From the NCBI GenBank assembly GCA_041907145.1, contig JAYRHW010000189.1:3624-67623 (forward strand): a stretch of DNA of 64,000 nt, written 5' to 3'. How positions within the stretch are numbered: the first letter of the stretch is position 1; each line of letters begins with the position of its first letter. The notes beneath the pieces were generated by a model. It saw only the letters and a list, made by a program, of their open reading frames with translations, had not been told where the DNA came from and made no database searches. This document shows positions 43,775-63,777 of the stretch, one piece after another. Source of the DNA: Bdellovibrionota bacterium. GTDB taxonomy: Bacteria > Bdellovibrionota_C > UBA2361 > JAFLCA01. A program made the position numbers and the translations under genes.

Positions 43775-46700
43775 CTACCTCCTCGCTGCTCTAGACTTCG
43801 GTTTGGGGGTCGGCGCGACCTTCTTCTTGGATCCAGTACTCGAACTTCCGGACGAAGAATTGGGACGAACGCGGACCGCAAAGTGCAACCCACCGAGATC
43901 GGATTCCTTCTTGTCAAGATCCTCGGTCCATCCCACGTACGATACCGGCACCGAGGTTACTTCCAAGCGCCCGGTGGCTGATTCGCCAGAGAGCTCGATG
44001 CGGCAATAGTCGTCAGGGAGGATGCCGTTCCAGCGGAAGTTGCTATCAATACCGAAGGAGTAGCGGCCCATGGTCGCGCAGTTGGCGATGATCTTTATAT
44101 CGAAAGTCTTCAGTTGGCTCTTCTCGCTGGCCGACAGTTTACGTCCATTTTGGCTGCTCTTGAGTTCTCCGCCCATAAGGAAGGCCATCGGGGTCGGGGT
44201 AGCGCTCGGAATCGGACTCGGAGTCCAGGTCGGCGTGGCGGTTGGGGTATCGGTAGGATCCGGAGTTTCGCCAGGTTTTGGAGTCGCTGTCGAGGTCGGA
44301 GTTGCCGAAGGCGTCGCCGTTGCAGTTGGCTGCACGCACTGAGTTAAGCCTGATGCCTTGGTGTCATGGAGGCTGCCGAAGGCGTAAATGCGTACCGTAT
44401 TGGCACTATTGAAGTCGCGCGGAGTCTCAAAGGTAGTATCGCTATTTGCCGCAGCCACGAAGCTGCCACGGAAGTTAGTGGCGTACATATCCCAATCGAC
44501 CTGCACATTTGAATTGTTCGAATTACGGACGCGCCACATGAGCTTGGAACTTGGATCGTCGGAACATAGGGACGTCAAGCGCAAGAGGGCCGGCGAGGTC
44601 GGAGTCGCAGTCGGAGTTACTGTAGGTGTCCTTGTCGGAGTAGCAGTAGCCGTCGCAGTCGGAGTTCTGGTCGGAGTCGCCGAATTAGTAGCCGTTGGCG
44701 TACTCGTCGGAGTAAAGGTTGGTGACGGAGTTCTTGTCGGGGTCGCAGTGTTCGTCGGCATCGGCGTGCTCGTTGCCGTCGGAGAATTGGTTGCTGTCGG
44801 CGTACTTGTCGGGGCTACCGTCGGAGTAACGCAAGGACCCTCGTAGTCATACGGATGCTTGTCGAGGTGCTGCTCATGAGCTTTGCCCTTCGACATGCTC
44901 ATCGTTTGCGTGGATTCCGGATTACCGGGCGCTACGTGACAGAAGACTATCTCCCCGTCGTTCGTAGGTGTAGCGCTGGCGGTGGCTGTTACGGTCGGGG
45001 TGGTCGTAACCACCGGCGTCTTGGTCGGAGATGGTGTTACGGTAGGAGTTGCCGTATTTGTAGCCGTTGGGGTTCTCGTAGCCGTAGCAGTCGAAGTCGC
45101 CGTCGGAGTAATAGTCGCCGTCGCCGTGAATGTTGCTGTCGGCAAGGGCGTAGCAGTACTAGTAGCTGTCGGGGTTATCGTCGAAGTCGGAGTTCTCGTC
45201 GGAGTGGCAGTTACCGTAGCCGTATTTGTTGGGGTGGCGGTCCTCGTTGCCGTCGGAGTTACCGTTGAAGTCGACGTCACGGTCGGAGTTGGCGTCGCAG
45301 TACGAGTCGGCGTCGCAGTCGGGGTGTTCGTTGCTGTCGGAGTTGATGTCGGTGTTGGACCAACCTGAGCACTGGAACGGAAATTGAGATAGTAGAGGTC
45401 GCGTGCCGCAGTTCCAGTGTATTGGTCCGGCGTCATGGACGAATCCTGGTATTCAGCCGTAACGATGTACTCCGAGCCCTCCGGAACCGTGATGGAGTAG
45501 ATACCCTGCTCGTTCGTTTCAGTGCTGCGGGTCCGCTCGTCATAATTGAGAGTTATCTTGGCGCCTGGAATTTGATAGCCCCAGAAATCGAGCACCGTTC
45601 CGGATAACACGAAGCTGCGCACGTTTATTTCGCGGAAATCTATGTCGGGAGTGTCGCAGCGAATGTTCGGGATGGAAACCGCAGCCGGATCAAAATAGCG
45701 ATCATTATACTCAACTGACACCCAGTTATTTGCAATGGCAGGTGAAGTAAACTGATAGTGCCCCTGCTCATCCGTGTAGGTAACAACATCATGATTGTTG
45801 AGGATTGCCGCTTGTGAAATCGGCTGACCAGACTGATCGATCACTCGCCCGCTGACGACGTAGGAGTCCTGGACCGGGCAAATGGAACCCCGGGTCGGCA
45901 GCCGTGTTGATGGCACCGGCAAAACAGCGCGGAAATTGACTCCGGCGTATGCGCGCATCACGTCGACGAACGAAATTTGCAGCGGATCAAAAACCATATT
46001 GCCCGAAGCGACTCGTAGCGAATAGCTGCCGCCTTCATTAACGCTGAGGACGTATTCTCCGCGGGAATTCGTGGTGCCAACATTTACTTCGTTAAGATAG
46101 ACGGCAGCGCCGGGCTGAGGAAAGCCATCAGGGTTATAGACAACGCCGCTAATGCCCTGCTTCGGGGTTCCAGACTGTCCAGCTCGCGCGATGAATTCAC
46201 CGCTCGAGGCACTACTCGTGGCGCAAAAGCGGAAAGGTGTGGTGCTCACGTGATCAAGGGTGTAGCCAGACAGAGCACCGATCACGGGAACATAGTCATC
46301 TCGCTTGCCGCTGTTGTCGTCATTACAGAAAGTCTGCTGCTCGGCCGGAAAGTAAATCTTTCCGCTTTGATCCGTGATTTGCGATAGAGTCGGACCATCT
46401 TCGTACAAATCCGGTACGGTAATGCGAGCACCGCTCATGGGATCCGAGTTAGCGTCTAAGACCTGCCAAGCGACTGCGTTCTGCTTCACTCCGTTAGTGA
46501 CGGCATGAAATAGGATCTTGGTAGTGGGGCCTGTAGGTGTAAGCGCGATGCGCGGGGGCGAGAACTGAAAGTTTCCCTTCGGGACAAGATTGATAATGGT
46601 GTTCGGGGCGACGCCAAGCTGTGCGGTGGTAATCCTGAGATTTCCGCTGCCGTCAGTACTGCGGGCGGACTTCGTCAGCGCAGCCACTCCGGAATCTCCC

Positions 46701-47491
46701 AGGAACTCAACTCCCGCCACGCCCGCTCCCGTCGAACTCTCGACCCGGATTTGATAGGTAACCGACGAGCCGACTGACTGCGGTGCGACCGGTGCGCATG
46801 CGGCAGTAACATATCCGTTCACGACATTAGCGTTAGGACATACTTGATTGGCTGGAGTCGAGCGCGATGTGAAGATGCAATCTTGATTGCTCGGACTAAC
46901 TGCAAATGCAGTTACATAGTTGTTATCAAGATCGGCATCGCGATCGTTACAGACTGTCGCAAGACGAGGGACGGAGAAGAAAACAGCACCGTCCCGGTCG
47001 GTCACTCGTTGCGAAGGACCAAGCGCGTTCGGGCTAGTCACTGGAATGCCTTCCAATCCCCGACCAGTCGAATTCGCGACCACCCAGCGCACTACCGACG
47101 ATTGATTTCCGCTAAGCACTCTGACGTCGCAGTTGAATTGCGGACAATTTTCGCGACTTACGCGGAGTTCAGGGGGATCGAATGAGACATTTCTGGAAGG
47201 ATGATAGTAGGTCACCGTGGGGGTGGCCGAATCGAGATTCTCCGTGATAATTGACACCAGACCTGAACTGGAGCTGAACATAGCGGGCTGGCGGCTCACA
47301 CCGTAGTTACCGGTTACCGATATCCCGTCGAGCGGAAGGTCGGCATCTGAGTAAAAGCGGATTTTAAAGGTATCAGCGTGCGCAGGCTTTATGACGAGCA
47401 GCACAGCAACCGTAGCCAGCAAAAATGCACTGACGAACCGCGCAAGACGCAGGAGCTGACCGAGTGATGTACCGTGGGACTGTGACTGCAC
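43775..47491 (-). CDS. giant secreted/surface protein: N-terminal signal/anchor, multiple carboxypeptidase-regulatory-like (CarbopepD_reg-type) domains, >300 aa of Thr/Pro/Ala tandem repeats, basic C-terminal tail
   Basis: 1238 aa. Repeated G(V/R)V(I/Y).xxGxPxxGAxV...TDxxGxYxF-type units, then three TP-rich blocks (e.g. [57 protein letters not shown]...), and a C-terminal [17 protein letters not shown] tail. GTG start. Confidence 0.8.
44185..45365. repeat. coding low-complexity tandem repeat region (ACN/CCN codon repeats encoding Thr/Pro/Ala linker blocks)
   Basis: Visible degenerate periodic DNA (gtcggagt.gc.gt.. units) in three blocks. It produces spurious GV-rich ORFs on the opposite strand. 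Confidence 0.7.
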
Positions 47492-47741: not shown

Positions 47742-50429
47742 CTAAGACCGAGGAGGCCCGCCTGTGGTGGCCTGATAGAGAGTATGGTGCAGGATTTCAA
47801 AGAGGCCCTTGGAGATATGAGGCGTCGAAATCAGTCGAGAAAGCGCTTGCTCCATGGCGGAGCGGCGAACGGGGTCCAATCGCATGAACCAGTGGAACGA
47901 CTTTGCCAACCCGGCCGCCACATTCGGATTGAATGCATCGACCTGCAAAATACGATCAGCGAAGAACGTGTACCCCTCACCCGATAATCGATGAAACTGC
48001 GGTAAATTGCCCGCAAACGTTCCATACAGGGAGCTTATCTTATTGGGATTCTTGGAATCGATGGCGGGGTTGCGTTCAAGCAACTTCACCACCTCAATCG
48101 CATCACCCGTGGGCACGGCCACTTGTGCATTTACCCACATGTCCATCACCACGGAATCCGCTCGCCACCGGTCATAGAAATGGGACAACGCCTGCCCTCT
48201 CTCCGGCCCGTCACCAAGAGCCAGGCACCTCAGTGCGGCGTAGGAGTCGGTCATATTATCCGCCGATCTGTATTGTTCAAATGCAGCCGCCACTGCCTCC
48301 GACTTCTCCTCGGAGACCAAATACCCCAAACAGACGTTCTTCAAAGACCTCCACCCCATTGAGTTCGAGTCCCGGCGATATATCCCGCCTAATCTCTTGC
48401 TTATGTCGCGATAGCTCCCCCAGAAGACTTCACGATTTCTACTCGTCAATGTCTGCAGGAAAAATCGTCGGGCAGCGAAGGCCGCGTCAAAGTCCGGGGT
48501 TTCAAGACTCATACACAATGAAAGCAAGCTCGGCATCATCAGGGCTTGAGCCCTCAATGCCGCATCAAATTTCTCATCCACCAACAGTCGCGCGAGAGCC
48601 TCGGAAACAGTAGTCGACACCTGAGGATCTCTTCCCTGCTTTATCGCGCTGTAAGCTTGCTGCAAACATCGAAGCCCCAGCCGCTGCCCGGCCTCATACC
48701 GATTGAAAGGATCACTGTCATGCGCAAGCAGAAACGCTAAGTCATCATCGCTGTAATCAAATTCAATCTTTACCGGAGCAGAAAAATTACGCAGCAGCGA
48801 TGGAACCGGCCTCTCCTTCAAACCCCTACACTCGACCGCAGCAGATTCGGCCCGCAGGTCGACATAGCTGCCTCGCTCGCTGAACTTTAGCCCTGGCACG
48901 GCATCAAGTTTTACATCCCGCCCCGCTGCATCGAGCAGTCCAATCCGTATCGGAATGACAAACGGCTTCACCTGCGCCTGGCCCTGTATCAACGGAGAAG
49001 ACTGAGAAAATTCCAGCCGATACCTGCCTGAAGCCGCGTCGAAAACTTCCCGAACCTTAACCACCGGAGTCCCAGCTTGAGAATACCAGAGTGCAAACTG
49101 CGAAAGGTCCTCTCCGCTCACGTCCTGCATGACCTGCAAGAAATCCTCGGTGCGTACAGCTTGTCCGTCAAAGCGGCGCAAATACTCTCGCACGGCCCGA
49201 TTGAAGACGCCTTCGCCGAGCAGTGTTTTCAACATTCCGATGACTTCGGCTCCCTTGCGATATACCGTCGAGGTATAGAAATTGTCGATTTCGATATACG
49301 ATTCGGGGCGAATCGGATGCGCATTGGGGCCCGCGTCCTCGAGAAATTGGCGCTCCCGCACAATTCGCACGTTCTTAATGCGCTCCACCGCGGCCGAATT
49401 CATGTCAGCCGAGAAATCCTGCTCACGGAGCACCGTAAGTCCTTCCTTGAGCGTAAGTTGAAACCAATTTCGCAGCGTAACCCTGTTGCCCGTATAGTTA
49501 TGGAAATACTCGTGGGCGATGACCGCTTCGATTTCAATATAGTCCTCATCACGAGCCGAGCTGGGGTCGGCCAAGACATACATGGCGTTAAAAATGTTCA
49601 ACCCCTTGTTCTCCATGGCGCCGGCATTGAAGTCATCGACAACAACAACGACATAAGTATCTAGGTCATACTCCAGTCCATAAACATCCTCGTCCCAGCG
49701 CATGGCTTTCTGCAGGGACTCCATGGCAAATCTGCAGCGCTCTTCATTGCCATGGCTGCAGTAAATCTGAAGCAGGATGGATCTCCCACTCTTGGTCACA
49801 AAACGATCTTCGATGACGCCCAAATCTCCAGCTACCAACGCAAACAAATAGCAAGGTTTTAGGAAGGGATCCTTGAACGTTGCTTCGTGCCTGCCGCCGG
49901 CCAGCACTCGCTGCGAGGTCTTGTTTCCGTTGCACAAAAGCACCGGATACTGTTTCTTGTCCGCCTCGATGGTAACCTCATAGGCCGTCATCACGTCCGG
50001 ACGATCAGGGAAGTAGGTCAAACATCGAAACCCCTCGGCCTCCATTTGGGTGCAAAGGATCCCCTTTGACTCGTAGAGGCCCAATCCCGATTTATTGTCT
50101 CGCGGCTTAATCGCCGTGACTATCGAGAGTTCTGCAGACTCGCCGATGTCCGGAATACTCAGCGATTCACGGCTCAGCACAAATTCTGTCTCGCGAAGCA
50201 GCCTGCCATTAACCGCGATGCTTCGAAGTTCGAGATTGCGGCCGTCGAGGCGCAGAGCTTCCCCGGACATTGCTGTGCCTCGCTTCAAGCTTAATGTCGA
50301 AGTTACGACCGTCTCTGCGGCTCGAATATCGACCTGCAGACGGATCGCCGGCACGAGATAGGCCGGTGGACGATAGTCACTCAGCAGTACTTGTTTTGGG
50401 GATTCCTGGTCCGAACTCATCGCAATCAT
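47742..50429 (-). CDS. pepN: aminopeptidase N (M1 family)
   Basis: GAMENKGLNIFN and HEYFHNYTGNRVT...E zinc-binding motifs. Start placed at the internal Met (MIAMSSDQ... / LLSDYRPPAY matches the PepN N-terminus). The track ORF extends to 50984. Confidence 0.9.
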   Translation of the reverse strand: MIAMSSDQESPKQVLLSDYRPPAYLVPAIRLQVDIRAAETVVTSTLSLKRGTAMSGEALRLDGRNLELRSIAVNGRLLRETEFVLSRESLSIPDIGESAELSIVTAIKPRDNKSGLGLYESKGILCTQMEAEGFRCLTYFPDRPDVMTAYEVTIEADKKQYPVLLCNGNKTSQRVLAGGRHEATFKDPFLKPCYLFALVAGDLGVIEDRFVTKSGRSILLQIYCSHGNEERCRFAMESLQKAMRWDEDVYGLEYDLDTYVVVVVDDFNAGAMENKGLNIFNAMYVLADPSSARDEDYIEIEAVIAHEYFHNYTGNRVTLRNWFQLTLKEGLTVLREQDFSADMNSAAVERIKNVRIVRERQFLEDAGPNAHPIRPESYIEIDNFYTSTVYRKGAEVIGMLKTLLGEGVFNRAVREYLRRFDGQAVRTEDFLQVMQDVSGEDLSQFALWYSQAGTPVVKVREVFDAASGRYRLEFSQSSPLIQGQAQVKPFVIPIRIGLLDAAGRDVKLDAVPGLKFSERGSYVDLRAESAAVECRGLKERPVPSLLRNFSAPVKIEFDYSDDDLAFLLAHDSDPFNRYEAGQRLGLRCLQQAYSAIKQGRDPQVSTTVSEALARLLVDEKFDAALRAQALMMPSLLSLCMSLETPDFDAAFAARRFFLQTLTSRNREVFWGSYRDISKRLGGIYRRDSNSMGWRSLKNVCLGYLVSEEKSEAVAAAFEQYRSADNMTDSYAALRCLALGDGPERGQALSHFYDRWRADSVVMDMWVNAQVAVPTGDAIEVVKLLERNPAIDSKNPNKISSLYGTFAGNLPQFHRLSGEGYTFFADRILQVDAFNPNVAAGLAKSFHWFMRLDPVRRSAMEQALSRLISTPHISKGLFEILHHTLYQATTGGPPRS

Positions 50430-50449
50430 GAATTGTATCGCTGTCTGGG

Positions 50450-51370
50450 CTATTTCGGATTTTCGCCTTTCATGCGCAGCCACACAAGGCCGCCGAGCAC
50501 GGCAAGAACGTAGGACTTGGCTCGCAATACTACGGCCACCCCAAGAGCTTGGGCCGGAGTTGCACCGATTCCATGCAAGAAGAAGTAGAACGCCCCCTCC
50601 TGAATACCCAGCCCATTCGGCGTAGCAGGAATCGACCCCACCAGTAAAATGATCGGCAGGACCACGAACAAATCCCAAACAGGAGGATGTTCCCACCCCA
50701 CTGCCTGGGCAGCAACTACGGTATTTACCACGGTGAGAGAGTGATAGAGAAAGGACAGTATCAGCGTTGTTCCCAAGAGACGAACATTCCCTCGCGCTAG
50801 CCGAAACCCGGATTGAACTTTGTGCATGCCCACGAGCACGGGCCGCAAAATGGCAAAACGCTCGAGAAGATGGGCCGGACGATCTGCCAAGGCAAGTACG
50901 GTGATAATGCCCAGACCCACGCCGACCAAGGCGATAGCAATACGTATCTCCACCGTCACATTGTCCACAAACCACATGAAGCACAAAGCCAAGAGCACCA
51001 TGGCCAAGAGGCCGGTGTAACGTTCAAGAATAGTCGCGGCCAGCGCCTCGTGTTGCCCAACTTTCTTGCCGATGTACCAACTGCGGACGATGTCTCCCCC
51101 GACATAGGACGGCATAAGCAAGTTCACGAAATAGCCGACCAGATATAAACCAAAGAGACGCACGAGCGAGACCGGCGCCTTGAGAAACTCGATGAACAAC
51201 TTCCACTTCAGCGCACTAACATAAATAAGGGCGATAGATAGCAAGGCCAGGCGCCCGATATCCCGCATCGAAAGGTCCTCAAGCGCGACAAGCAGCTCCT
51301 GGGGACTGACTAGATAGACAAGCCCAACCAAGATCGCCAGCGCAAATAACGTGCGAAGAACCTTCTTCAC
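50450..51370 (-). CDS. polytopic membrane protein, flippase-like / LPG-synthase-TM (UPF0104)-like candidate
   Basis: 306 aa with ~8 hydrophobic helices. 4-nt overlap with the upstream GT-C gene. Family assignment is by gestalt only. Confidence 0.55.
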   Translation of the reverse strand: MKKVLRTLFALAILVGLVYLVSPQELLVALEDLSMRDIGRLALLSIALIYVSALKWKLFIEFLKAPVSLVRLFGLYLVGYFVNLLMPSYVGGDIVRSWYIGKKVGQHEALAATILERYTGLLAMVLLALCFMWFVDNVTVEIRIAIALVGVGLGIITVLALADRPAHLLERFAILRPVLVGMHKVQSGFRLARGNVRLLGTTLILSFLYHSLTVVNTVVAAQAVGWEHPPVWDLFVVLPIILLVGSIPATPNGLGIQEGAFYFFLHGIGATPAQALGVAVVLRAKSYVLAVLGGLVWLRMKGENPK

Positions 51371-53394
51371 TTGAGCACCTCAACCTCTGCTATCGACCAG
51401 TCGAAAATCGGCTGCGTTCCCATTTGTCTCAAAATGATGCGCTGAATATCCGCCGATGCGAAGGTGAACAGCATGGACGTCGCATCGTCCCGAGCGTAGC
51501 GGACCGCTTCCCAGTCGTCGGGATCAAGGAGTACGCGCTTGTTCCCGTTCCGCAGCACGAGATCTATCCCTAAGTCCCGCGGCTGATCATGCACCCAAGT
51601 GCCCAGCTCATACCGGACGCCGCGAATCGTCTCGCCAGCAGCGATATCGATACGATACTCCATGCCAGGACGCTGTGGAGCCGCCGAACCCCAGCGAGTG
51701 CCTGGATTACCGTCCACCCCGAGCAGGACGGCGGTCTGTCCATCTGTCGCTGACGGGGTAAGCAACTTGCTCTCGAGGGGAACAAGAGACAACTCGCTGG
51801 GATGCAGGTCATAGAGCACTTCATAATTGGAAACCAATACGGATTGGTACCGCAGGCCCTCTAGGTCGAAGGCCCGTCTCACGACTCTAGCCTGCGATGG
51901 AACCAATACTAACGGTAAATAGCTCTTGCCTCGAATTCCCGCATCGCGCTCATAGTCGCGAATGCGAACGTCCTTGGGCTCATGAAAAATCGCGAATCGC
52001 ACTCGCTCCTTTGTCTCGAACGCCAGCCGATACCCGATCCAATAGTTAGTTCGCACAAAATCGATTCCAGCCTTCTCGAGAAAGCCAATCAACTCACGGT
52101 GATCTTTGGAAACCCTTTCCCCTTCATAAATGAATGGCTCTCCCGGCAGGGCCCTGCCGCCCAAGTACCAAGACGAGACATTCAATAGCAGAACTCCGCA
52201 AGTCAAAGCCCCAGCTAGAATTCGACTACGCAAGGCGAGCAACGAGATTGCACAGGCACTAAGCACGAAAATAGAGACATAAGCCGGCAGCAAGTACCGC
52301 GGAGACTGTACGAGCGAGCCAAAGGAGCTGGTGACAAATACTGCGACGATAGTCATGAGCAAGAGCATGAAGAGCTCTACCGGATCACGGCGGCTAATCT
52401 GAAAGGCACACAAGGCCTTGAGCCCAAATCGCCGCTTCCATAACAAATACACGAGAAGAAGGCCGTACAGTCCAAACGCGGCCTGGGAAGCTCCGGGGAA
52501 AACATCTTCCTTGTGCCACTGACGCCGTGCTCCGAGGAGCATCGGCAAAGAGGTGCTCAGTAATCCCTCCGTATGCTCGGAAACTGCAGAAACATCCGAG
52601 GCTTTGACAATCTCGAACGAAACAAAATGATGTCGAAGATTATAGATCCAAAACGGTGCGCCGCCGATGAGAAATGCAACTGCTGCTGCCAGAGAATGGC
52701 GAAGCAAAGACTTGAACAAATCCGGGAGCGAATGTCTGTTCGCTGAGTACAACGATGTCGCTATACAAAAGGCAGAAGGCAAAATGAAATACAGAATTTG
52801 ATTGTTTACCCACCAGCCGAGGCCCAAAAACGCGGCGATCGCGGCAGTTTGCAACTCCGTGGGTCGCGAGGTGCGGAGCCAGCGCAGCAGGAGTACGATC
52901 GAGAAGCCGCCGATACACAGGATTTCCATGTACCCTCCGCGCGCCATCGAGCTCCACAGCACCAGAAGCTGGGGAGGCAAAGCTGCAAACAAAGCTGCCA
53001 GCCTTGCAACGCCTCTGCTGCCCAGCTCCAGACCTATCTGATAGAGCAGCACGACAAACAGCAACGAACACACAAGCGGGACGACCTTAAGCGCCACCGA
53101 GGAAATTCCCACGACGGCAAATAGGCCTGCCGCGAAGAAGGCTTCAAGGCTGCCCATGTAGTGCTGCCCGTAATAGAAAATCGGGAAATCCCTGCCTTCG
53201 AGAATATGCTTGGCCATGAGGCCGACGATGGCCTCATCGGAGTCTATAACGAAGCGGTTAGCGAATAGGAAATCCAGCCGCAGCAGCAGTCCTGCCAGCA
53301 GAATCAGCGTCAGAAATATTCGATCATGCTTTAGCAAGAAATTCGGTAGCACAACGAGAGCTGCTTCAGAGGATGATTTGCTGCCTGACGGCAT
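51367..53394 (-). CDS. GT-C fold membrane glycosyltransferase (GT39/GT83 PMT_2/ArnT-like) with C-terminal discoidin (F5/8 type C) domain
   Basis: The N-terminal first-loop motif VIDSDEAIVGLMAKHILEG...FYYGQHYMGSLEAF is followed by ~11 TM helices. The C-terminus LLGVDGNPGTRWGSAAPQRPGMEYRIDIAAGETIRGVRYELGTW matches the discoidin DGxxxTxW...W.vDLG pattern. Confidence 0.65.
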   Translation of the reverse strand: MPSGSKSSSEAALVVLPNFLLKHDRIFLTLILLAGLLLRLDFLFANRFVIDSDEAIVGLMAKHILEGRDFPIFYYGQHYMGSLEAFFAAGLFAVVGISSVALKVVPLVCSLLFVVLLYQIGLELGSRGVARLAALFAALPPQLLVLWSSMARGGYMEILCIGGFSIVLLLRWLRTSRPTELQTAAIAAFLGLGWWVNNQILYFILPSAFCIATSLYSANRHSLPDLFKSLLRHSLAAAVAFLIGGAPFWIYNLRHHFVSFEIVKASDVSAVSEHTEGLLSTSLPMLLGARRQWHKEDVFPGASQAAFGLYGLLLVYLLWKRRFGLKALCAFQISRRDPVELFMLLLMTIVAVFVTSSFGSLVQSPRYLLPAYVSIFVLSACAISLLALRSRILAGALTCGVLLLNVSSWYLGGRALPGEPFIYEGERVSKDHRELIGFLEKAGIDFVRTNYWIGYRLAFETKERVRFAIFHEPKDVRIRDYERDAGIRGKSYLPLVLVPSQARVVRRAFDLEGLRYQSVLVSNYEVLYDLHPSELSLVPLESKLLTPSATDGQTAVLLGVDGNPGTRWGSAAPQRPGMEYRIDIAAGETIRGVRYELGTWVHDQPRDLGIDLVLRNGNKRVLLDPDDWEAVRYARDDATSMLFTFASADIQRIILRQMGTQPIFDWSIAEVEVLK

Positions 53395-53396
53395 CG

Positions 53397-54584
53397 CTAC
53401 GCTCCCTGCGCTTGGGCCGCAAGGCGTTCGTAGGCGGCGAGCGTTTGCTCGCCGGTCTTACTCCAGGTGAAAAGCTTCGCTTGCTCAGGGCCCCGTGATT
53501 TCAATCGCTGAGAGAGCTCCGAAGTATGCAGAACGGCAAACAATTCACGCGCAGCCTGTTCAAAGTCATTCGGATCCACCATGAGTGCCGCATCACCCAG
53601 GACCTCCGGCATACTCGAAGTCCCAGAACTTACGACCGGGGCTCCGGCCGCCATCGCTTCGAGAGGTGGCAGTCCGAACCCCTCATACAAGCTCGGGAAG
53701 AAAAACACCGCACAAGTAGCATAAAGCTGCAAAAGGTCCGAATCGTCTACGAATCCCGGAGTCACCACATCCGCTTCCAAGCCGAGTACCTTTATCAGGT
53801 GCTCGACCTTAGTATACTGGGCATCGGATTGAATGTTGCCGGCCATGAGCAGTACAGGAGCGATTTGCCCCTGCTCGATGCTCATGCACTTTAGAATACT
53901 AAACGTGTGCAATAATCCAGCCGCATTTTTACGCTGATCAATTCCTCCGACGTACAGAACCAGGGGCCGGCCTGATGGAATCCGATACCGGGATAACAAT
54001 GGCTGCAAATCGCGCGGCGCCTGGGCGTCGAAAAACTTCCGGTCAACGCCCAAGTGTGTGACGACTATTCTGTCTTCCGGCACCCCCAACATTCTGTGCA
54101 CATCGCGTGCGGTGTTATGGCTGATTGCAACGATGAGCGAAGCATTCTTGATCGCCTGCATCTCCAAGAATCTGGCGAACGCAAAACGCCAGGTAGGCTT
54201 GTCGGCTTTATAGAGATCTTTGAGCACCAGGGGAATAAGATCGAGCACCGTTAGAATGTAGCGCTTTGGACTCCAAGCCGGCGCATCCATATGCGCCGGA
54301 AAGTGCACCGCATCAAATTGGCTTAGCGCCCCCTTCCTGAGCCGCAATGGATACAAGATTTGCTGGCTTAAGGTGCGTTTGCCGGCCGGAAGCGCATCAA
54401 TACACCGCAGTGCGAGAGAAGGCTCCTTGAAGGCAGTTTGATCGAAGGACCCCACTTGCAAGCCGGCCCCGGAGTACCCCTTCAGGTAGCGGTGCAGCTC
54501 TTGCACGTAGCGTCCGATTCCGCGCAATGCGTGATTCTTAAAGCTCGTGTCGAGCGCGCTGGTGTCCAGTCCGATCGAGTACAT
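53397..54584 (-). CDS. glycosyltransferase family 4 (GT-B)
   Basis: E-x7-E motif region [27 protein letters not shown]. Confidence 0.85.
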
Positions 54585-54591
54585 AGAATAT

Positions 54592-55689
54592 TTAACTACC
54601 CGTGGCGGATTTTGCCGACCGGCGCCGAATAGATTGCGCGAGGAGACCTTGCACCTGCTCCGAGAATTTCTCGACCGACAGCTCTGACGCTCGCTGCTTG
54701 CCTGCCTCGATCATTCGGGTACGCAGCTTAGCATCTGAGTACACTCGAAACATCAATTCCGCAATCTCAGGGTGCTTCTTCTCCTTTACGAGTATGCCGC
54801 CAGCTCCAATCGTCTGAGGCAGAGCTGACGAAGCGAACGAAATAACGGGAAGTCCGAAGTGCATGGCCTCGATGACCGGCAAGCAGAAGCCCTCATGCTC
54901 GCTCATACACAGATACATGCTGGCAGCCTGATACAGGGATTTCAATTCGCTATCGTCGCGTTGACCTATAAAATGCACGCTCTCGTCGATGCCAAGCTGC
55001 TGAACGAGTCGCTTAAGTCCGAATGAATACACCTCGGTATCGATGTCAATGCCTACCAGCCATAATTTCGAGGTCTGGTGAATATGTTTCTGCAGAAAGT
55101 AGAAGCACTTGATTATATCCTCGACGCACTTATTTGGCGCGAATCGTCCGACATGCAGCACATGCAACGAAGGATCGCTCTGCAGCAGCGATAATATACC
55201 CGGATTAGCCGGCACTGACCATTTCTCTGAGTCGATGGGGAGCTCGAGCACACTGGCATCGAATCCCAACGTTTTATGTTCTCCCGCATTGAATGCCGAG
55301 TCAGCGATAAGTAAGTCGCTAAGTCTGCAGAGTTCGGGCAATTCCCGCAGTCCCCGCTCGATGTCGGCCGCGATGCGAGGATTAGTCGAGCGAAACCAGT
55401 GTGCAGGGGTCAAGTTATGATATATCAACGCTCGACCAACGGTACTAAGACCACGATAGAGATCATTGAGCGGGGAGCCCAGCGAGTAATGGAGAATCAC
55501 CTCACCCGAAAAGGCCTGCGGAAAGTCACGCACATCTCGCGCTTGTGACTTGTACTTAGGGTGAACGTTAATTGCGAAAATCTCCGAACTGATCCCCATC
55601 TGCTGGAGGCAGCGGCGCAGCGCCAGCACCTCGCCTGAAATGGCGTCCCCGTAACTGAGTGTATGTACCAGCTGGTGAACTTCTCGCAT
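54592..55689 (-). CDS. glycosyltransferase family 4 (GT-B)
   Basis: MSEHEGFCLPVIEAMHFGLPVISFASSALPQTIG motif region. Confidence 0.85.
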   Translation of the reverse strand: MREVHQLVHTLSYGDAISGEVLALRRCLQQMGISSEIFAINVHPKYKSQARDVRDFPQAFSGEVILHYSLGSPLNDLYRGLSTVGRALIYHNLTPAHWFRSTNPRIAADIERGLRELPELCRLSDLLIADSAFNAGEHKTLGFDASVLELPIDSEKWSVPANPGILSLLQSDPSLHVLHVGRFAPNKCVEDIIKCFYFLQKHIHQTSKLWLVGIDIDTEVYSFGLKRLVQQLGIDESVHFIGQRDDSELKSLYQAASMYLCMSEHEGFCLPVIEAMHFGLPVISFASSALPQTIGAGGILVKEKKHPEIAELMFRVYSDAKLRTRMIEAGKQRASELSVEKFSEQVQGLLAQSIRRRSAKSATGS

Positions 55690-55698
55690 GGCCGAACG

Positions 55699-56478
55699 TT
55701 ATAACAACTCTGCAAAGCTGTCGCGGAACCGGCTGTACACCATGTTCCCGAGCACCAGGGCTACCCCGGCCCAGGCCATCAGATACGCCCAGGAATAGAA
55801 GGCAGGCACCACCCCATCCAGAACAAGGCTATGGTACATCATGAGCAACCCCGCGAAAGGGTTAATATCGAGAGTAAATCGAAAGGCTTGCGGCACGTTA
55901 CTGGCGGGATACACGACTGGGCAGAGGAAAAACAGCAGAGTTAGAAAATTACCCAGAATATGCTGCACGTCTCGGAACTGCACGTTGAGCGCCGAAAGAC
56001 AGAGTCCGGCGCCATAGAGCAGCAGCGCCTGCAGCACTATGCAGAACGGCAGCAGCAGTAGACTGGAATGAAACGGCATATGCGCGGCATACATGAAGAC
56101 AGCCAACAGGGGTAGTGACAACAAAAAATTTACCATGGTCGTGATGACAGCAACGAAGGGCAGTATATGCGCCGGAAACATCGATTTGGTAATGAGATGT
56201 CCGCTCGATACGATCGACGAGGTAGACTCCGAAAGTCCGCTCGTGGTCCATATCCAGGGTAGCAGTCCGCAAAAAAGAAAAATGGTGTAGTTCTCGACGC
56301 TGTTGAAGCGAAGGTAGAATTGAAAGACCAGGGTGTACACGAGCATCAAGCAGAGCGGGTTCAAGAACGACCATAAAAATCCCAGCGCCGAACCGCGGTA
56401 GCGCATGGCCAGATGCCGACCAACGAGCGCGCCAATCAGCGCACGAAATTTCCAGAGTTCACGTATGCTCTCAAGCAC
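55699..56478 (-). CDS. wzm: ABC-2 type polysaccharide export permease (Wzm-like)
   Basis: ELWKFRALIGALVGRHLAMRYRGSALGFLWSFLNP is the Wzm N-terminal signature, with six TM helices. Likely start is GTG at 56478 (GGGAGAG RBS, 4 nt after the wzt stop). The track ORF extends to 56640, overlapping wzt. Confidence 0.8.
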   Translation of the reverse strand: MLESIRELWKFRALIGALVGRHLAMRYRGSALGFLWSFLNPLCLMLVYTLVFQFYLRFNSVENYTIFLFCGLLPWIWTTSGLSESTSSIVSSGHLITKSMFPAHILPFVAVITTMVNFLLSLPLLAVFMYAAHMPFHSSLLLLPFCIVLQALLLYGAGLCLSALNVQFRDVQHILGNFLTLLFFLCPVVYPASNVPQAFRFTLDINPFAGLLMMYHSLVLDGVVPAFYSWAYLMAWAGVALVLGNMVYSRFRDSFAELL

Positions 56479-56482
56479 AATA

Positions 56483-57814
56483 TTACTCTCCCGCCTTGAG
56501 CTGCAAAATCTTTCCGTCGAGCAGCCACTGATGCGCTGGTGCGAATACGCCGATATCCTTATGCGTGGACCGCACGACAAAGGACACCGCTGCCTTGTGG
56601 TAGTCAAAGGGATATCCATCGTCCCGGTGCACCGCCACATCCAGCGTGTAGGATCCTTCCAAAAGGCCTATTCGTGGGAGCTTGATGGTAAGCCGCCCTG
56701 ATTTTTCCAACCGCGGCAAGCTTAGGCGCTCGAGATCGGTATTCGTCCCGTACACGACCAGTCCATCGGCGCGATTAATGGCGATGCCAAATACGCAGCT
56801 GGGAACCTGCTCGTTTACCAAATATCGGAGCTCGATCCCGCAAGCATCTTCGGTGTGGAACAGGTGCCGGGCCTCGCCCTTCTCATCCACCAAGCTCACC
56901 GAATCGATAACTACCTCTCGGCTTCCCCAACGCGCTGCCTCTGTCTTGGGCTCGGATTCGGCTATCGGATGGCTCTGTGCTTCATGACGTTCAAGTTCGG
57001 CTTCCTCTCCTCGCTCGATGAACTGCCGGTAATGATCGATGACACGCCGCGGGTCGCCGCGATCTCTAACAATTCCCTCATGCAGCCATACGGCTTCATC
57101 GCACCAGCGCTCAACGGCATCGAGGTCATGCGTCACCAATAGAAGAGTTTTCCCCTCCTTGCGGAGCCGCGCGATGCGCTCCTTGCACTTGCTGACGAAC
57201 GCGGCATCGCCGACAGCCAGCACTTCATCGACGATCAAGACATCGGGATCGGTATGAACGGCCAAACTAAAGCCGAGCCTCATGAACATACCCGAAGAAT
57301 AGGTCCGCACCGGATCGTCTATTACCGCTTCCAGTTCAGCGAAGGAGACTATTTCATCAAATCGCTCATCAATTTGCGCACGCGTGAGCCCGTGCATGAC
57401 GCCGCCCAGGTATAAGTTCTCCCTCCCCGTAAAATCGGGATGAAAACCGGCACCCAATTCGATCAACGCTGCCACCCTGCCGTGAAGCTGCACCCGGCCG
57501 GCGTCCGGCTTGTAAATGCCGCTGATGAGTTTGAGCAGCGTGGATTTACCGGAGCCGTTGCGGCCGATGATTCCTACGGAAGCTCCCTGGGGGATACGAA
57601 TGGTGAGATCTTGAATCGCTCTCGTGATATTGCCTTCTGGCGCAGCCTTGGGGAAAGCAAACCGGAGCAGAGACGATTTGAGCGTCGTGTACCCGCCCTT
57701 GAGAGTCTGGCGACGAAAGGACTTGCTTAGGTCAACTATCTCCAGCGCGTAGCGTATTCCCTCAGCCTTTGCCGACGGCGATTGAACTACTGCTGCGGCT
57801 GTCGCGGTCTGCAC
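56483..57814 (-). CDS. wzt: ABC transporter ATP-binding protein Wzt-like with C-terminal carbohydrate-binding extension
   Basis: Walker A GRNGSGKSTLLKLISG, signature YSSGMFMRLGF, Walker B LIVDEVLAVGD, plus a ~180-aa C-terminal beta-rich domain. Confidence 0.85.
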   Translation of the reverse strand: MQTATAAAVVQSPSAKAEGIRYALEIVDLSKSFRRQTLKGGYTTLKSSLLRFAFPKAAPEGNITRAIQDLTIRIPQGASVGIIGRNGSGKSTLLKLISGIYKPDAGRVQLHGRVAALIELGAGFHPDFTGRENLYLGGVMHGLTRAQIDERFDEIVSFAELEAVIDDPVRTYSSGMFMRLGFSLAVHTDPDVLIVDEVLAVGDAAFVSKCKERIARLRKEGKTLLLVTHDLDAVERWCDEAVWLHEGIVRDRGDPRRVIDHYRQFIERGEEAELERHEAQSHPIAESEPKTEAARWGSREVVIDSVSLVDEKGEARHLFHTEDACGIELRYLVNEQVPSCVFGIAINRADGLVVYGTNTDLERLSLPRLEKSGRLTIKLPRIGLLEGSYTLDVAVHRDDGYPFDYHKAAVSFVVRSTHKDIGVFAPAHQWLLDGKILQLKAGE

Positions 57815-57817
57815 GTA

Positions 57818-58366
57818 TTAGCTCTGTTGAATAATGTAAATGGAAGGGAGATTACGCCAACGATTACAATCTTCCATGCCATATCCGACCATCCACTCGG
57901 GTCCCTTATACTCGAAGGCTGCCCATTCAGGATTGAAGGTCTCCTCTTCGAGGACGCGCTTTATCAATACAGCCGAGCGAACCTTGAGCGCGCCTGCGTC
58001 ATAAAATGCCTTCGTAAGCAGCTTCAGTGTCTTGCCGGAATCACAGATGTCATCCACGAGCAGCACGGAACGGCCACGCACGTGCACATCCTCCATACTT
58101 ACCCGCGCCTCGGTTCGCTGCACGTTGTTATCACCGCTTTCATAGACCCAGGTACGCACCGGGGCGATCTCTACGGAAGACTGAATCTGTCGAACGAGAT
58201 CAGCGAAGAAGAAAATCCCGCCTCTAAGCACTGGAATGGTTACCAGGTCGGTATGCGAATCCTGCCAGACGGCATTCGCCCAGGCGCTAATATCCTCGCC
58301 TAGCCGCTTCACCTGCGATTCGATTTGCTGAGGGGTATATTGCAGCTTGAAGTTCGAAGGAATCAT
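57818..58366 (-). CDS. hpt: hypoxanthine-guanine phosphoribosyltransferase
   Basis: PRPP-binding motif VLLVDDICDSGKTL. Length 182 aa. Confidence 0.85.
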   Translation of the reverse strand: MIPSNFKLQYTPQQIESQVKRLGEDISAWANAVWQDSHTDLVTIPVLRGGIFFFADLVRQIQSSVEIAPVRTWVYESGDNNVQRTEARVSMEDVHVRGRSVLLVDDICDSGKTLKLLTKAFYDAGALKVRSAVLIKRVLEEETFNPEWAAFEYKGPEWMVGYGMEDCNRWRNLPSIYIIQQS

Positions 58367-58553
58367 AGTGAGCGACGCCCCTAACCTATTGTAATAACGA
58401 GAATTTACACGCTTTAGGAGGCTGCATCGTACTATAGGGGAGTCGAATAATCAAAGATTCAGACATGCTACACTTAAGGCAAAGGTTCTGGTTTTGTGCA
58501 GGCCGGAAATACAGGATAAGTGTTGATAAGCGGTGGGTGGAGAGGAAAGAAAC

Positions 58554-58946
58554 ATGCGCATCGGGAAACTCTTGGTAATTGGCGGACTGCTGCTGGAACT
58601 GTCCGGGTGCGGCTCCGGTGATGGGCGCGAGCCTGGCATTATCCGTGACATCAAGCATTTTTTTCGCAGCACGAGTAATACCATAGAGGGATACACTCCT
58701 AGTCGCGACCAGATCTCGGCAACCGCGACAAAGCAATTTCAGGATATGTTTACATTCGAGTACCGAGTAGTAGAGGTTGACAATGCTGTGACTGCGGAGC
58801 AACTGGAGCGAAAGCTCGCCGAGCTTGGGCAGGATCGCTGGGAATGCACGCAACTTCTCGAGCGCGGATCCTCTTATATGATTCCTTGCCGGCGCCGTCC
58901 CATAAGTCTGCTCCGATATGCGCTTAGATTTTTGCCGATCCCATAA
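58554..58946 (+). CDS. lipoprotein, DUF4177-like
   Basis: Lipobox LLELSGC after a signal sequence, and a C-terminal EYRVVEVD...LERKLAELGQDRWECTQLL pattern. GGAGAGGAAAGA RBS. Its stop overlaps the next gene's ATG as TAATG. Confidence 0.55.
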   Translation: MRIGKLLVIGGLLLELSGCGSGDGREPGIIRDIKHFFRSTSNTIEGYTPSRDQISATATKQFQDMFTFEYRVVEVDNAVTAEQLERKLAELGQDRWECTQLLERGSSYMIPCRRRPISLLRYALRFLPIP

Positions 58947-60013
58947 TGCGATATCTGTTGTTCACTTTTCTCCTGACTCTGTCGGCCTGCGCGTCGCAGC
59001 GCCCGTTGCTGCCTCCCGGGGAAGTGCCCGAGCAAACTGAAGTCGCCTCGGATGATGAGCAGTACGGACAAGCGGTCTTGAATCAACTCATGGATCGCTA
59101 CGAGCTGGACACCGATGATACTCGCATCAATAGAGTGCGCGATATAGCTCAGCGACTGACGGAGACAAAGAACCCCAACAGCAATCCTTGGCATATTTAC
59201 GTGCTAAAGGATCCGGATTTCAAGAATGCCGCGGCTACCCGCGGCAATTATATTTTCGTCTGGACCGGGATCCTAGAGACCGTCAGAGATGATGATGAAC
59301 TCGCGACGATCTTGGCTCATGAAATTGGCCACGTCCTTGCAGGTCACACCTTGCCCGATCCTTCGGAGGAAGTGAGCAGCATGATAGCCGGCATCGCCGG
59401 AACGGCCACCGGGCAGGTGCTTTCAGCTCAGGGCGCCGTAGGCATTTTAGCCAGCCTCGCGGATTCCTTAGTTCGCTCGACGATGGAAGCGGTGTTGGTT
59501 AATCCCGACTTAAAGCGAAAAGAGCTGGAAGCCGATCAGGTGGGGCTCTTCTTAATGGCTGAAGCGGGATTCGATCCCGAAAGAGCAGTGAGTTTTTGGG
59601 AACGCATAAAGGATGACCCCGATTTCGGAGGATTTCCGATTGCATTTCTTTCTTCGCACCCCTCCTCCGAGGATCGCTTCCTCAGGCTCCAACAGCTTTT
59701 GCCTGAAGCTGAAGAAGTTTATCACGGTAAACGCAAGGACTCGCGCTTCATTGCAGACCCAGGGCGCAGCGATTTCGTTCTATCACAGCGGGAGGTCTCT
59801 GCGCGTAAAGAAACCTGGGTTGTGCTGGAACCCACGGCTGCGGTGATGGACGCGCCCAAAGCCGAAGCTAAGCGCGTTGGGACTTTGAAAGTTGGGGCCA
59901 AGGTAACCGTGGTCGGCCACCGCGGACCCTGGCTAGAAATTTCCGAGCCCTCGCAAGGCTTCGTCAAGGGAACTGACCTTGCTCCATTTAAGACCGATAG
60001 TTTTGCGCGTTAG
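58946..60013 (+). CDS. M48-family zinc metalloprotease lipoprotein with C-terminal SH3b-like domain
   Basis: Lipobox LTLSAC; HEIGHVLAGH zinc motif; C-terminus VGTLKVGAKVTVVGHRGPWLEISEPSQGFVKGTDL is SH3_3-like. Confidence 0.8.
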   Translation: MRYLLFTFLLTLSACASQRPLLPPGEVPEQTEVASDDEQYGQAVLNQLMDRYELDTDDTRINRVRDIAQRLTETKNPNSNPWHIYVLKDPDFKNAAATRGNYIFVWTGILETVRDDDELATILAHEIGHVLAGHTLPDPSEEVSSMIAGIAGTATGQVLSAQGAVGILASLADSLVRSTMEAVLVNPDLKRKELEADQVGLFLMAEAGFDPERAVSFWERIKDDPDFGGFPIAFLSSHPSSEDRFLRLQQLLPEAEEVYHGKRKDSRFIADPGRSDFVLSQREVSARKETWVVLEPTAAVMDAPKAEAKRVGTLKVGAKVTVVGHRGPWLEISEPSQGFVKGTDLAPFKTDSFAR

Positions 60014-63000: not shown

Positions 63001-63777
63001 GCCGGATTCTTCCAAAGGATTTGGCAGCCCAATTTCCGCAAAGCTGCTCTTAATGAACTGCCCGCCCCGCTCAAAGACACGAAAATTATCACCCGGCTGG
63101 ACTACCTCCCACTGCGGCAGTGGAATGAGCTTCTCGAGCGCTCCTCTCGCGATTAGCTCTGGAGTAGGCGGCTGAGTGGCATGAATCTCACGCGCCAATC
63201 CGTTTCTGTCATAGCTTTCTCCCAAAACATACTTCTTGTAGGGAAGAATGTTGTTGTTGTACGAAGCACCTCCCCAAAGCATGGCCGACGTTGTCATGAG
63301 ACTTCGTTCAGCTGCGTGTACTTCCTTGGCGTGACAACCGCCGCACGTCTCACGAGCCACGCGTAGATCTCCGGGATTGACGAAGCGCACAAACTCGGGC
63401 GGTTCTTTCAACAAATCAGTGTAGCTGTGCTTCGGATTGGCCGAACTGGGCCAGTTCTCCGGACTTCGGGGTAGCACATGCGCAGACTGCTTTGCATGCT
63501 CGTAGGCAGCTGTACCGGGGGAAAGGTCCGCGGCCCGCACCGCCGAATTTCCGCCATGGCAATCCGTGCAGCCGATAACTACCGCCGGGTTCTTATGCAT
63601 GGTCAGCGTATCAGACTTGCTGTGACAGTCCTTGCACCCCAGGCTGTTGCTCCCCATTTGGCTGACACTGATGTTGAAGTTCAGCGGCGCAGGCTTTTCA
63701 TCCTCGGCATAGACCAGCCCCACGCCCGTCAGGGCAACGAGCAGAAGAGAACCGATATGGAGAAGAGCGGTTCGCAT
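60094..63777 (-). CDS. decaheme c-type cytochrome fused to C-terminal LVIVD-repeat beta-propeller (1227 aa, signal peptide)
   Basis: Ten CxxCH motifs counted: CKDCH, CTDCH, CGGCH, CTGCH, CMVCH, CVDCH, CEDCH, CFTCH, CAGCH, CNDCH. Signal peptide MRTALLHIGSLLLVALTGVGLVYA. C-terminal repeats SLVIIDLDEPLQPKV, GFHVVDITHIDKAHEIV, GLVIVDIERPEQPKVYQVF, GFKVLQLTDPERVP. Confidence 0.8.
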   Translation of the reverse strand: MRTALLHIGSLLLVALTGVGLVYAEDEKPAPLNFNISVSQMGSNSLGCKDCHSKSDTLTMHKNPAVVIGCTDCHGGNSAVRAADLSPGTAAYEHAKQSAHVLPRSPENWPSSANPKHSYTDLLKEPPEFVRFVNPGDLRVARETCGGCHAKEVHAAERSLMTTSAMLWGGASYNNNILPYKKYVLGESYDRNGLAREIHATQPPTPELIARGALEKLIPLPQWEVVQPGDNFRVFERGGQFIKSSFAEIGLPNPLEESGKPDIRASNRGLGTGSRVAIPVLNIHKTRLNDPHLSFLGTNDHPGDYRSSGCTGCHVVYANDRDPSHSGPYAKFGNDGKTQTVDPTIPKDEEGHPLRHEFSRAIPTSQCMVCHMHQPNMFVNSFLGYTMWDYESDAPSMWPKQQRNPTDEELHQSLEHNPEEAAARGLWTDNQFLKNVIDLNSTLKDTQFADYHGHGWNFRAIFKRDRKGNLLDAKGRLVSASDPDKFKKAVHMADIHVDKGMHCVDCHFDQDAHGDGNMYGEVAQAVEIGCEDCHGSVAARATLKTSGPAAPPGGRDLSTMRTPFGDLRFLWKGSELYQRSTLTQGLEWKVRQVRDSVDPNSPDFNAKSAKAKLTARLTAEQTTPSSVSLKQVDAAADQVKLLAHSNDKMACFTCHSSWITGCAGCHLPIQANWMKTSNHYDGKLTRNWASYNPQVARDEMYQIGLHGPAKGNKIVPVRSSSALILSSTDINRQKIYVQQPPISAAGFSSQAFAPHFPHTVRTVETKGCNDCHVSKANDNNAIMAQLLLLGTNFVNFMGYHSYVATGSAGLEAVQVTEWSEPQAVIGSYLQRFAYPDNFKAHQDRGQELLESQTHHGAGGVTNTIQARGEYACTTAGTGGFRCYDIANVGNKGFSERITTSPVSPLGQDLHVPTTNATSFAFPTTMPIAPFRKPLEENLEQPMHPIYHYAYITDSEEGLIAVNVDTLADREPSNNFLSRALTWNEGGILTGARAITLAGARAFIATTNSLVIIDLDEPLQPKVLATVPMNHPTGIAVQFRYAFVTAADGFHVVDITHIDKAHEIVHAHIALPDARGLYVARTYAYVAGGSQGLVIVDIERPEQPKVYQVFNDGGKIDDLNDVKVATTNASLFGYLADGKNGFKVLQLTDPERVPTFYGFSPEVKPLVIAHRATHGPALYISKPLDRDRAVDETGHQVSIFGRIGSRPFNAAEMEKLYLNAAGKLFTVP

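Follow-up and report, generated by a model that had tools for sequence, protein, structure and literature searches.

Several membrane glycosyltransferases of the GT-C fold are known to carry periplasmic carbohydrate-binding modules (CBMs), namely EmbA, EmbB and EmbC, AftD, and ORF12 of Citrobacter youngae O1 (PMC11127046; bioRxiv 10.1101/2019.12.22.885152). ORF12, the founder of family GT136, decorates an O-polysaccharide that is exported by an ABC transporter. It uses a donor provided by a synthase and a flippase, its C-terminal CBM binds the unmodified polysaccharide backbone, and its locus encodes Wzm and a Wzt with a CBM of its own (PMC11127046). For the Ca2+-binding modules CBM1 and CBM3 of AftD, the ligand-bound homologues 1UYY and 4A45 have been cited (bioRxiv 10.1101/2019.12.22.885152). 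Among archaea, UPF0104 proteins are predicted flippases and are found as neighbours of PMT/STT3-like proteins (PMC5898192). Here we describe a related gene on a 64,000-nucleotide (nt) stretch of contig JAYRHW010000189.1 from a Bdellovibrionota bacterium (GCA_041907145.1), hereafter called the window. The gene occupies positions 51367..53394 on the minus strand and encodes a 675-amino acid GT-C glycosyltransferase with a C-terminal domain of the discoidin (F5/8 type C) or CBM32 type. On balance we lean towards the view that uncultured Bdellovibrionota share a conserved glycan pathway dependent upon an ABC transporter, and that this protein performs its periplasmic step, with the CBM32 domain holding the acceptor or the product.

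Comparison with described systems

ORF12 is the closest parallel, GT136 being compared here by its published description. The two proteins are alike in their GT-C fold, a candidate catalytic aspartate after the first transmembrane helix, a C-terminal beta-sandwich CBM, and an ABC-transporter locus with a CBM-bearing Wzt and an adjacent putative flippase. The CBM of ORF12 is, however, described as immunoglobulin-like, whereas the one found here is of the discoidin/CBM32 type. The ORF12 locus contains a MATE-type flippase and a polyprenyl-phosphoribose synthase, in contrast to a UPF0104 protein and no linked synthase in the window; and the host belongs to the Enterobacteriaceae rather than to the uncultured Bdellovibrionota. 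Compared with three-component systems in general, the GT-C protein lies in a glycan locus and is accompanied by a flippase-like gene, although of another family (UPF0104/PF03706, not GtrA, SMR or MATE), while the linked synthase is missing.

AftD and EmbA/B/C, which are among the structural neighbours retrieved with Foldseek, share the domain order, in which the GT-C(A) core precedes a periplasmic alpha/beta domain and at least one acceptor-binding CBM. They are larger (approximately 1,050-1,400 amino acids), with several CBMs and extra transmembrane helices, and they use decaprenyl-phosphate arabinose in an actinobacterial cell-wall pathway that lacks a Wzt/UPF0104 operon. ArnT (GT83), the undecaprenyl-phosphate-4-amino-4-deoxy-L-arabinose (L-Ara4N):lipid A transferase, gives the best overall superposition and is comparable in the size of its transmembrane core and in having a periplasmic alpha/beta domain; it differs in its 13 transmembrane helices, the absence of a CBM and its genomic context. 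The archaeal Agl23 family (TIGR03663, arCOG00563) is the closest curated family and shows the same pairing with a UPF0104/LPG_synthase_TM gene (PMC5898192, PMC11182771). Its model, of 435 positions, has no CBM32 tail, and Agl23 is a reported translocator of dolichyl-phosphate-hexose or lipid-linked oligosaccharide.

The design of the fusion is therefore already known from published precedents. The initial annotation singled the fusion out as worth characterising, but with EmbA/B/C, AftD and ORF12 on record (PMC11127046; bioRxiv 10.1101/2019.12.22.885152) it is less unusual than was implied. What differs from these examples is the family-wide CBM of discoidin/CBM32 type, the UPF0104 flippase-like partner, and the host range in uncultured Bdellovibrionota. 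A literature search retrieved no paper on the GT-C/discoidin fusion of the present family.

The gene and its family

Both the list of open reading frames (ORFs) and the translation give an ORF of 675 codons with an ATG start at exactly these coordinates, the stop codon being located at 51367..51369. A Shine-Dalgarno-like sequence (AGGGAG) is found 7 nt 5' of the ATG, and a gap of 2 nt separates the 5' end of the gene from the stop codon of the upstream glycosyltransferase family 4 (GT4) gene. At the other end, the tetranucleotide GTGA (51367..51370) forms a 4-nt overlap in which the GT-C stop codon is shared with the GTG start of a downstream flippase-like gene, with a Shine-Dalgarno-like GAGGTG at this junction.

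A first homologue search yielded at least 893 proteins of approximately 640-810 amino acids each, aligning end to end with the target. The working alignment comprised 55 of these homologues with 41-59% identity to the target, and contains 66 invariant columns. Family size was estimated with residues 1-540 as the query, leaving out the CBM, against 1.84 billion cluster representatives (clusters at 50% identity), which gave 378 matches at E <= 1e-30 and 2,859 at E <= 1e-10. Based upon the number of homologues, the invariant columns and the 378 clusters, the ORF is real, far beyond chance. Since the full-length matches to this CBM-free query, which are essentially all 625-740 amino acids long, carry approximately 120-150 further residues past the matched region, the CBM32 domain is ancestral and nearly universal in the family, and no one-off fusion. 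Short matches mostly start or stop within the matched region and are fragment-like; two proteins, P0188 (572 amino acids) and P0252 (510 amino acids), are possibly truncated or without a CBM.

The hosts were surveyed using one genome per GTDB species. Relatives were found at 157 loci, of which 80 were kept. All 80 come from uncultured organisms, most of them labelled Bdellovibrionota, Bdellovibrionales, Oligoflexia or "Deltaproteobacteria", with a minority labelled Candidatus Dadabacteria, Proteobacteria/Pseudomonadota or simply "bacterium". In the databases, homologues are called "ArnT-like" by JGI and, in one case, "glycosyltransferase family 39 protein" by NCBI.

Membrane core, catalytic motif and topology

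Single-sequence searches of the target against Pfam and PDB sequences returned chance-level matches only (DUF6122 and an adiponectin receptor), and the whole protein has no Pfam match at E <= 0.1. Its domains are visible at the family or profile level only. The PMT_2 model (PF13231) scores 7.8 bits (E = 4.8) on the target, short of the gathering threshold of 26.1; when the homologues were scanned singly, 32/55 matched it at E <= 0.01, the best at 27-32 bits and so barely above the gathering score. PF02366 (PMT, the GT39 protein O-mannosyltransferases) has no match in the target at E <= 10 and does not figure in the family list of the 55 homologues. The Agl23 model TIGR03663 aligns with residues 28-212 only (24 bits, E = 1.8e-5; cut-off 126.25 bits) and is weakly matched by 34/55 homologues, the best at 2.9e-11. 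No NCBIfam ArnT match was obtained for the target, nor any significant sequence match to ArnT models. Lying below the curated thresholds, the protein is not a demonstrable member of the PMT_2, PMT/GT39, ArnT or Agl23 families.

The fold is much clearer at the level of structure. An AlphaFold2 model built from the 55-sequence alignment has a mean predicted local distance difference test (pLDDT) score of 92.4 and a predicted TM-score (pTM) of 0.88. When the body of this model was compared with the PDB using Foldseek, solely GT-C(A) enzymes were retrieved (STT3 of oligosaccharyltransferase (OST) complexes, AglB, ArnT, PglB, AftD and EmbA/B/C), with ArnT (5ezm and 5f15) having the top target-normalised TM-scores of 0.57-0.59. 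Residues 1-410 (52165..53394, minus strand) form the transmembrane core. It has 11 predicted transmembrane helices, assigned from the AlphaFold secondary structure together with hydropathy, a number within the GT-C range of 7-13, and a cytoplasmic N-terminus. The protein has the GT-C(A) fold and, as a putative inner-membrane enzyme, would use a lipid-phosphate-linked donor.

The first periplasmic loop starts with the motif DSDEA (residues 51-55; 53230..53244, minus strand), 6-9 residues past the first transmembrane helix. Residues D51, D53 and E54 are invariant in the 55 homologues. The catalytic aspartate of GT-C enzymes has been described just after this helix (PMC11127046), and D51-x-D53-E54 is a candidate catalytic motif by conservation and position. 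The other invariant loop clusters, R152-G153-G154, G191/G193/W195/N197/Q199 and P365-R366-Y367, are, like the DxDE residues, all assigned to the periplasmic side, and no loop assigned to that side lacks such a cluster. Across the 55 sequences, lysine plus arginine account for 0.20 per residue in the assigned cytoplasmic loops, compared with 0.064 in the periplasmic loops, a three-fold difference. Because the number of helices is odd, the N-terminus is inside and the charge density differs in this manner, residues 411-675 are predicted by the positive-inside rule to lie in the periplasm, as they do in every solved GT-C structure.

The resemblance to ArnT raises the question of whether the enzyme modifies lipid A or the lipopolysaccharide (LPS) core, as ArnT or RgtD do, for instance by addition of a neutral sugar, rather than an exported polymer. 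Besides the TM-scores and the JGI label, the gene set is a lineage-wide trait embedded among housekeeping genes, and we have counted on the same side the lipid A of Bdellovibrio, which presumably bears mannose instead of phosphate. There are, however, no donor genes of the arn or rgt type nearby, it is Wzm/Wzt and the GT4 genes, not lipid A genes, that are in tight synteny with the GT-C gene, and ArnT is devoid of a CBM and unmatched at the NCBIfam level; we consider a lipid A modifier very unlikely.

Slightly less credible still is a PMT/GT39-like protein O-glycosyltransferase acting upon Ser/Thr-rich secreted proteins, in which the lectin-like domain would do what the MIR domain does in the PMTs of eukaryotes. 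The GT39 name given to one homologue and the PMT_2 matches in 32/55 would agree with it, as would the presence, 4-10 kb downstream in the window, of genes for two large secreted proteins whose long linkers are rich in Thr and Pro. Against it stands the lack of PF02366 matches in the target and in the reports for its homologues. Furthermore, a Thr/Pro-rich protein is syntenic in the closest relative (locus L007) only, whereas Wzm, Wzt and the GT4 genes accompany the GT-C gene in 42-45/52 loci.

The least probable of the alternatives is that the protein is no transferase but, like Agl23, translocates lipid-linked sugars together with the UPF0104 protein. TIGR03663, whose full name is "flippase activity-associated protein Agl23", is after all the nearest curated family, and translocation of a lipid-linked oligosaccharide by purified Agl23 has been observed in liposomes (PMC11182771). 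The score is nevertheless far under the cut-off, and the invariant DxDE, the conserved periplasmic loops and a periplasmic region of 265 residues with a CBM are hard to square with a pure translocator.

Predicted periplasmic domains

Residues 411-540 (51775..52164, minus strand) constitute a highly conserved alpha/beta domain, in which strands and helices alternate with pLDDT > 90 in the model. No Pfam match was obtained for it even at E <= 10. Many of its residues are invariant in the 55 sequences (P420, R427, Y451, W452, G454, Y455, E460, E463 and R477). The whole-chain Foldseek alignments to ArnT comprise 614-618 columns, long enough to extend beyond the membrane core, and judging from the model this region is probably the counterpart of the periplasmic domain in ArnT-like enzymes.

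The C-terminal tail, residues ~541-675 (51370..51774, minus strand), is assigned to the discoidin, F5/8 type C or CBM32 beta-sandwich from profile, structural and family-level matches. PF00754 scored 15.4 bits (E = 0.021) on the isolated tail of the target, below its gathering threshold of 28.2, and was matched by 40/55 homologues scanned singly (E <= 0.01), the best of them barely above the gathering score at 28.5-28.7 bits. In the whole-family profile, it is the last ~140 positions (525-662 of 664) that match F5/8 type C and CBM32 domains of known structure. A profile of the tail alone, searched against PDB sequences, gave 30 matches at E <= 1, which with a single exception are of the F5/8 type C or CBM32 type. 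The best was 7jnb (E = 1.7e-7); 2rva and 4zz5, chitosan-binding CBM32 modules from Paenibacillus, were aligned over the full domain at ~3e-5. Structural comparison of the tail by Foldseek retrieved the NanJ CBM32 (2v72; target-normalised TM-score 0.77, root-mean-square deviation 3.0 A), 7blg (0.76) and CBM32-5 of CpGH89 (4a44; 0.72), as well as domain 1 of galactose oxidase. We take 4A45, the second of the AftD-related structures named above, to be an entry of the same CpGH89 CBM32-5 series, i.e. a CBM32. One member of the family also matches the Pfam model for the third CBM of AftD.

The discoidin signature DGNPGTRW is located at residues 561-568 (51691..51714, minus strand), followed by YRIDIAAGETIRGVRYELGTW at residues 580-600. 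In the 55-sequence alignment D561, R567 and W568 never vary, and the conservation of T566 is at least 90%. In AlyQ, D209 and T214 belong to the conserved structural Ca2+ site that CBM32 modules have in common (PMC5651945). D561 and T566 have the same D-x4-T spacing, a sequence analogy that may point to a similar site.

A GT-C enzyme of about 11 transmembrane helices, with a DSDEA motif in its first loop and a periplasmic C-terminal discoidin domain, is what the initial annotation had described from the DNA alone. The helices, the motif and the discoidin strings that it quoted are all present, and the overall description is upheld by the Pfam matches of the family, the CBM32 profile matches, the model with its GT-C and CBM32 neighbours, and the predicted topology. 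The Pfam scan that it proposed went the other way, the target itself being below the gathering scores of PF00754 and PF13231 and without PF02366, which taken literally is an outcome that the annotation had named as refuting it; the GT-C and CBM32 assignments stand despite this because of the profile, family-level and structural evidence.

Gene order and its conservation

Seven minus-strand genes lie close together, with intergenic distances of -4 to 9 nt, and the GT-C gene is the sixth of them. In the 5' to 3' direction these are an hpt-like gene, wzt (with a Wzt_C domain), wzm, two GT4 genes, the GT-C gene and a UPF0104 gene. The operon of Wzt, Wzm and two GT4 enzymes is the strongest contextual clue, and was absent from the initial annotation.

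The UPF0104/LPG_synthase_TM gene (50450..51370, minus strand) encodes a 306-amino acid membrane protein that resembles the MprF flippase ("PplT"; PF03706, 1.5e-42; TIGR00374, 6.4e-21). Directly upstream of the GT-C gene is GT4b (53397..54584, minus strand), with Glycos_transf_1 (1.6e-29) and Glyco_transf_4 (4.5e-12) domains and weak similarity to PimA and GlcNAc-PG synthase; the second GT4 glycosyltransferase is GT4a (54592..55689, minus strand; Glycos_transf_1, 5.4e-30). PDB searches with GT4a and GT4b gave generic retaining GT4 enzymes only, and did not indicate the sugar. The Wzm-type ABC-2 permease (55699..56478, minus strand) matches PF01061 (6.7e-16) and a Wzm/KpsM-like NCBIfam model. 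Its probable start is the GTG at 56478, which is preceded by GGGAGAG and lies 4 nt past the wzt stop codon, and homologues are 259 amino acids long. The mechanically called ORF (55699..56640, minus strand) would give 313 amino acids from an ATG at 56640, with a 158-nt overlap with wzt. The Wzt-type ATPase (56483..57814, minus strand) combines an ABC_tran domain (2.1e-20) with a C-terminal Wzt_C glycan-binding domain (9e-29), and has a TagH/Wzt-like NCBIfam match.

The block opens with a type I phosphoribosyltransferase of the hpt-like kind (57818..58366, minus strand; PF00156, 8.6e-16), 3 nt before wzt. On the HGPRTase model TIGR01203 it scores 92.8 bits, below the cut-off of 150. It may be a housekeeping hitch-hiker or be linked to the glycan, and is syntenic with the operon in 39/52 loci. 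In other three-component systems, the lipid-linked pentose donors that depend upon phosphoribosyl pyrophosphate (PRPP) are the products of UbiA-type enzymes.

Synteny was counted over the loci with enough flanking DNA, which numbered 52 for the upstream and 65 for the downstream side. Both GT4 genes are directly upstream of the GT-C gene in 45/52 loci, Wzm is syntenic in 43 and Wzt in 42, so that the wzt/wzm/GT4/GT4 block is kept in 42-45 of the 52, down to ~38% identity. Gene calls on five independent contigs gave the same operon arrangement. On the downstream side, the UPF0104 gene is directly adjacent in 36/65 loci, and within 9 kb, though not adjacent, in 8 more. In the initial annotation the 4-nt overlap between the two genes was assigned to the start of the GT-C gene and read as a sign of stoichiometric coupling. 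The overlap is real but is at the stop of the GT-C gene; given the frequency of adjacency, stoichiometric coupling is an over-reading, and translational coupling is plausible. A scan for promoters and terminators across 50000..59200 yielded fewer sites than shuffled controls did; it gave no internal signals and does not inform the operon boundaries.

In some genomes there are also lone GT-C/CBM32 paralogues apart from the operon. Three of these, at L046:6629-8614, L058:6742-8796 and L065:3-1223 (all on the minus strand), adjoin a different UPF0104 protein of 661-684 amino acids in which LPG_synthase_TM is fused to PD40 beta-propeller repeats. The PD40 match and a neighbouring GDSL lipase were confirmed by Pfam scan in L046 and L058, while L065 was matched by tblastn only. 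These loci are a second, independent linkage of GT-C and UPF0104 genes. Divergently adjacent to another lone copy is a GT2 protein of 323 amino acids with C-terminal transmembrane helices (L044:8757-9728, minus strand). Its architecture is that of polyprenyl-phosphate sugar synthases (GtrB/ArnC-like), which is perhaps a hint as to the donor; no counterpart was found in the other loci searched (L007-L086).

Proposed role

We propose that the two cytoplasmic GT4 enzymes would build a lipid-linked glycan, which Wzm/Wzt would export in a step gated by the C-terminal glycan-binding domain of Wzt. On the periplasmic face, the GT-C protein would then transfer a sugar to the exported glycan. The donor would be linked to a lipid phosphate and is probably a polyprenyl-phosphate monosaccharide. 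The co-translated UPF0104/PplT-type protein would be the likely flippase that moves this donor to the outer leaflet, and the CBM32 domain would keep the glycan acceptor or product near the active site. This model follows the logic of C. youngae O1 ORF12 and fits the archaeal neighbourhood of UPF0104 and PMT/STT3-like genes.

Several observations weigh against it. The three-component scheme is incomplete here in that no donor synthase is linked, neither the operon nor the scanned ORFs of at least 230 amino acids in the 64-kb window including a polyprenyl-phosphate sugar synthase of the GT2 or UbiA type. Only about one locus in two has the UPF0104 gene next to the GT-C gene, and those UPF0104 proteins that have experimental backing are concerned with phospholipid or glycolipid flipping (MprF; GpgF, predicted) and not with polyprenyl-phosphate sugars (PMC12713373; bioRxiv 10.1101/2022.03.11.483950). 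Agl23, from the nearest curated family, is itself reported to be a lipid-linked sugar translocator, not a transferase (PMC11182771). Lone GT-C/CBM32 copies in loci L009, L044, L084 and L086 are situated away from any Wzm/Wzt genes. Lastly, sugar binding by the CBM32 domain is putative, and the high conservation of this domain could equally reflect an interdomain interface.

The main competitor, unlikely in our judgement, is that the enzyme builds a chain rather than decorating one. In that case the GT4 enzymes would make a short glycolipid primer which the UPF0104 protein flips, and the GT-C protein would extend it processively with the CBM32 domain holding the chain, much as the Emb, AftD and Mpt enzymes hold mycobacterial arabinan and mannan. 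In favour of this, Foldseek retrieved AftD and EmbA/B/C as neighbours of the model, the CBMs of Emb and AftD hold polymeric acceptors (bioRxiv 10.1101/2019.12.22.885152; PMC11127046), and the AftD third-CBM match of one family member points in the same direction. So do the gpgSDF and hexSDF operons, in which GT4 and UPF0104 genes occur together and whose products make and probably flip glycolipids (PMC12713373), and the weak similarity of GT4b to PimA and GlcNAc-PG synthase. On the other hand, the presence of Wzt_C in Wzt implies that the polymer is already complete and bears a terminal mark when it is exported from the cytoplasm (PMC11127046), and polymerisation in the periplasm would then hardly be needed; moreover, each operon has a single GT-C gene, and the donor synthase is not linked here either.

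A further-reaching version may also be considered. In this version the seven-gene block would be a self-contained, undescribed envelope-glycan pathway of a large clade of uncultured Bdellovibrionota, in which a UPF0104/PplT flippase takes the place of GtrA, SMR or MATE proteins in feeding a CBM32-tethered GT-C enzyme, and the latter would found a new CAZy family. The stand-alone UPF0104/PplT family has so far been tied experimentally only to aminoacyl-phospholipid flipping, and we regard this version as possible but doubtful.

Other genes in the window

The remainder of the window is made up of housekeeping genes. Downstream of the operon, the mechanically listed aminopeptidase N ORF (47742..50984, minus strand) runs into the flippase-like gene through ~196 spurious codons at its 5' end; conserved PepN sequence starts near 50396, ~55 nt after the flippase-like stop codon. 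The two proteins with Thr/Pro-rich linkers are a secreted protein of 1,238 amino acids (43775..47491, minus strand) and an S8 subtilase-like protein (41792..43768, minus strand). Their very long linkers of TPTATPT repeats are possible targets of O-glycosylation. The idea that these proteins drive the conservation of the GT-C gene was rejected, since the synteny is restricted to L007.

At 60094..63777 (minus strand), a protein of 1,227 amino acids with a signal-like N-terminus, many CxxCH motifs and a C-terminal repeat region resembles a large multihaem cytochrome. An unusually long flagellin of 635 amino acids is encoded at 8045..9952 (minus strand). In two other loci, flagellin genes, one of them with FG-GAP repeats, lie a few kb from the GT-C operon (L004:11213-12073 and L005:17043-17980); no link between the two was established.

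Implications

If the proposed role is correct, the present family would be a third independent lineage of GT-C enzymes with their own acceptor-binding lectin module, after Emb/AftD and GT136, and would strengthen polymer tethering as a general solution for the tailoring of glycans in the periplasm. It would also provide a bacterial stand-alone UPF0104/PplT protein with a role in a glycan pathway. In practical terms the value is modest, consisting of a possible addition to the CAZy families and a further CBM32. For the organisms themselves, the locus draws attention to a surface-glycan operon that is conserved in a little-studied phylum of predatory bacteria.

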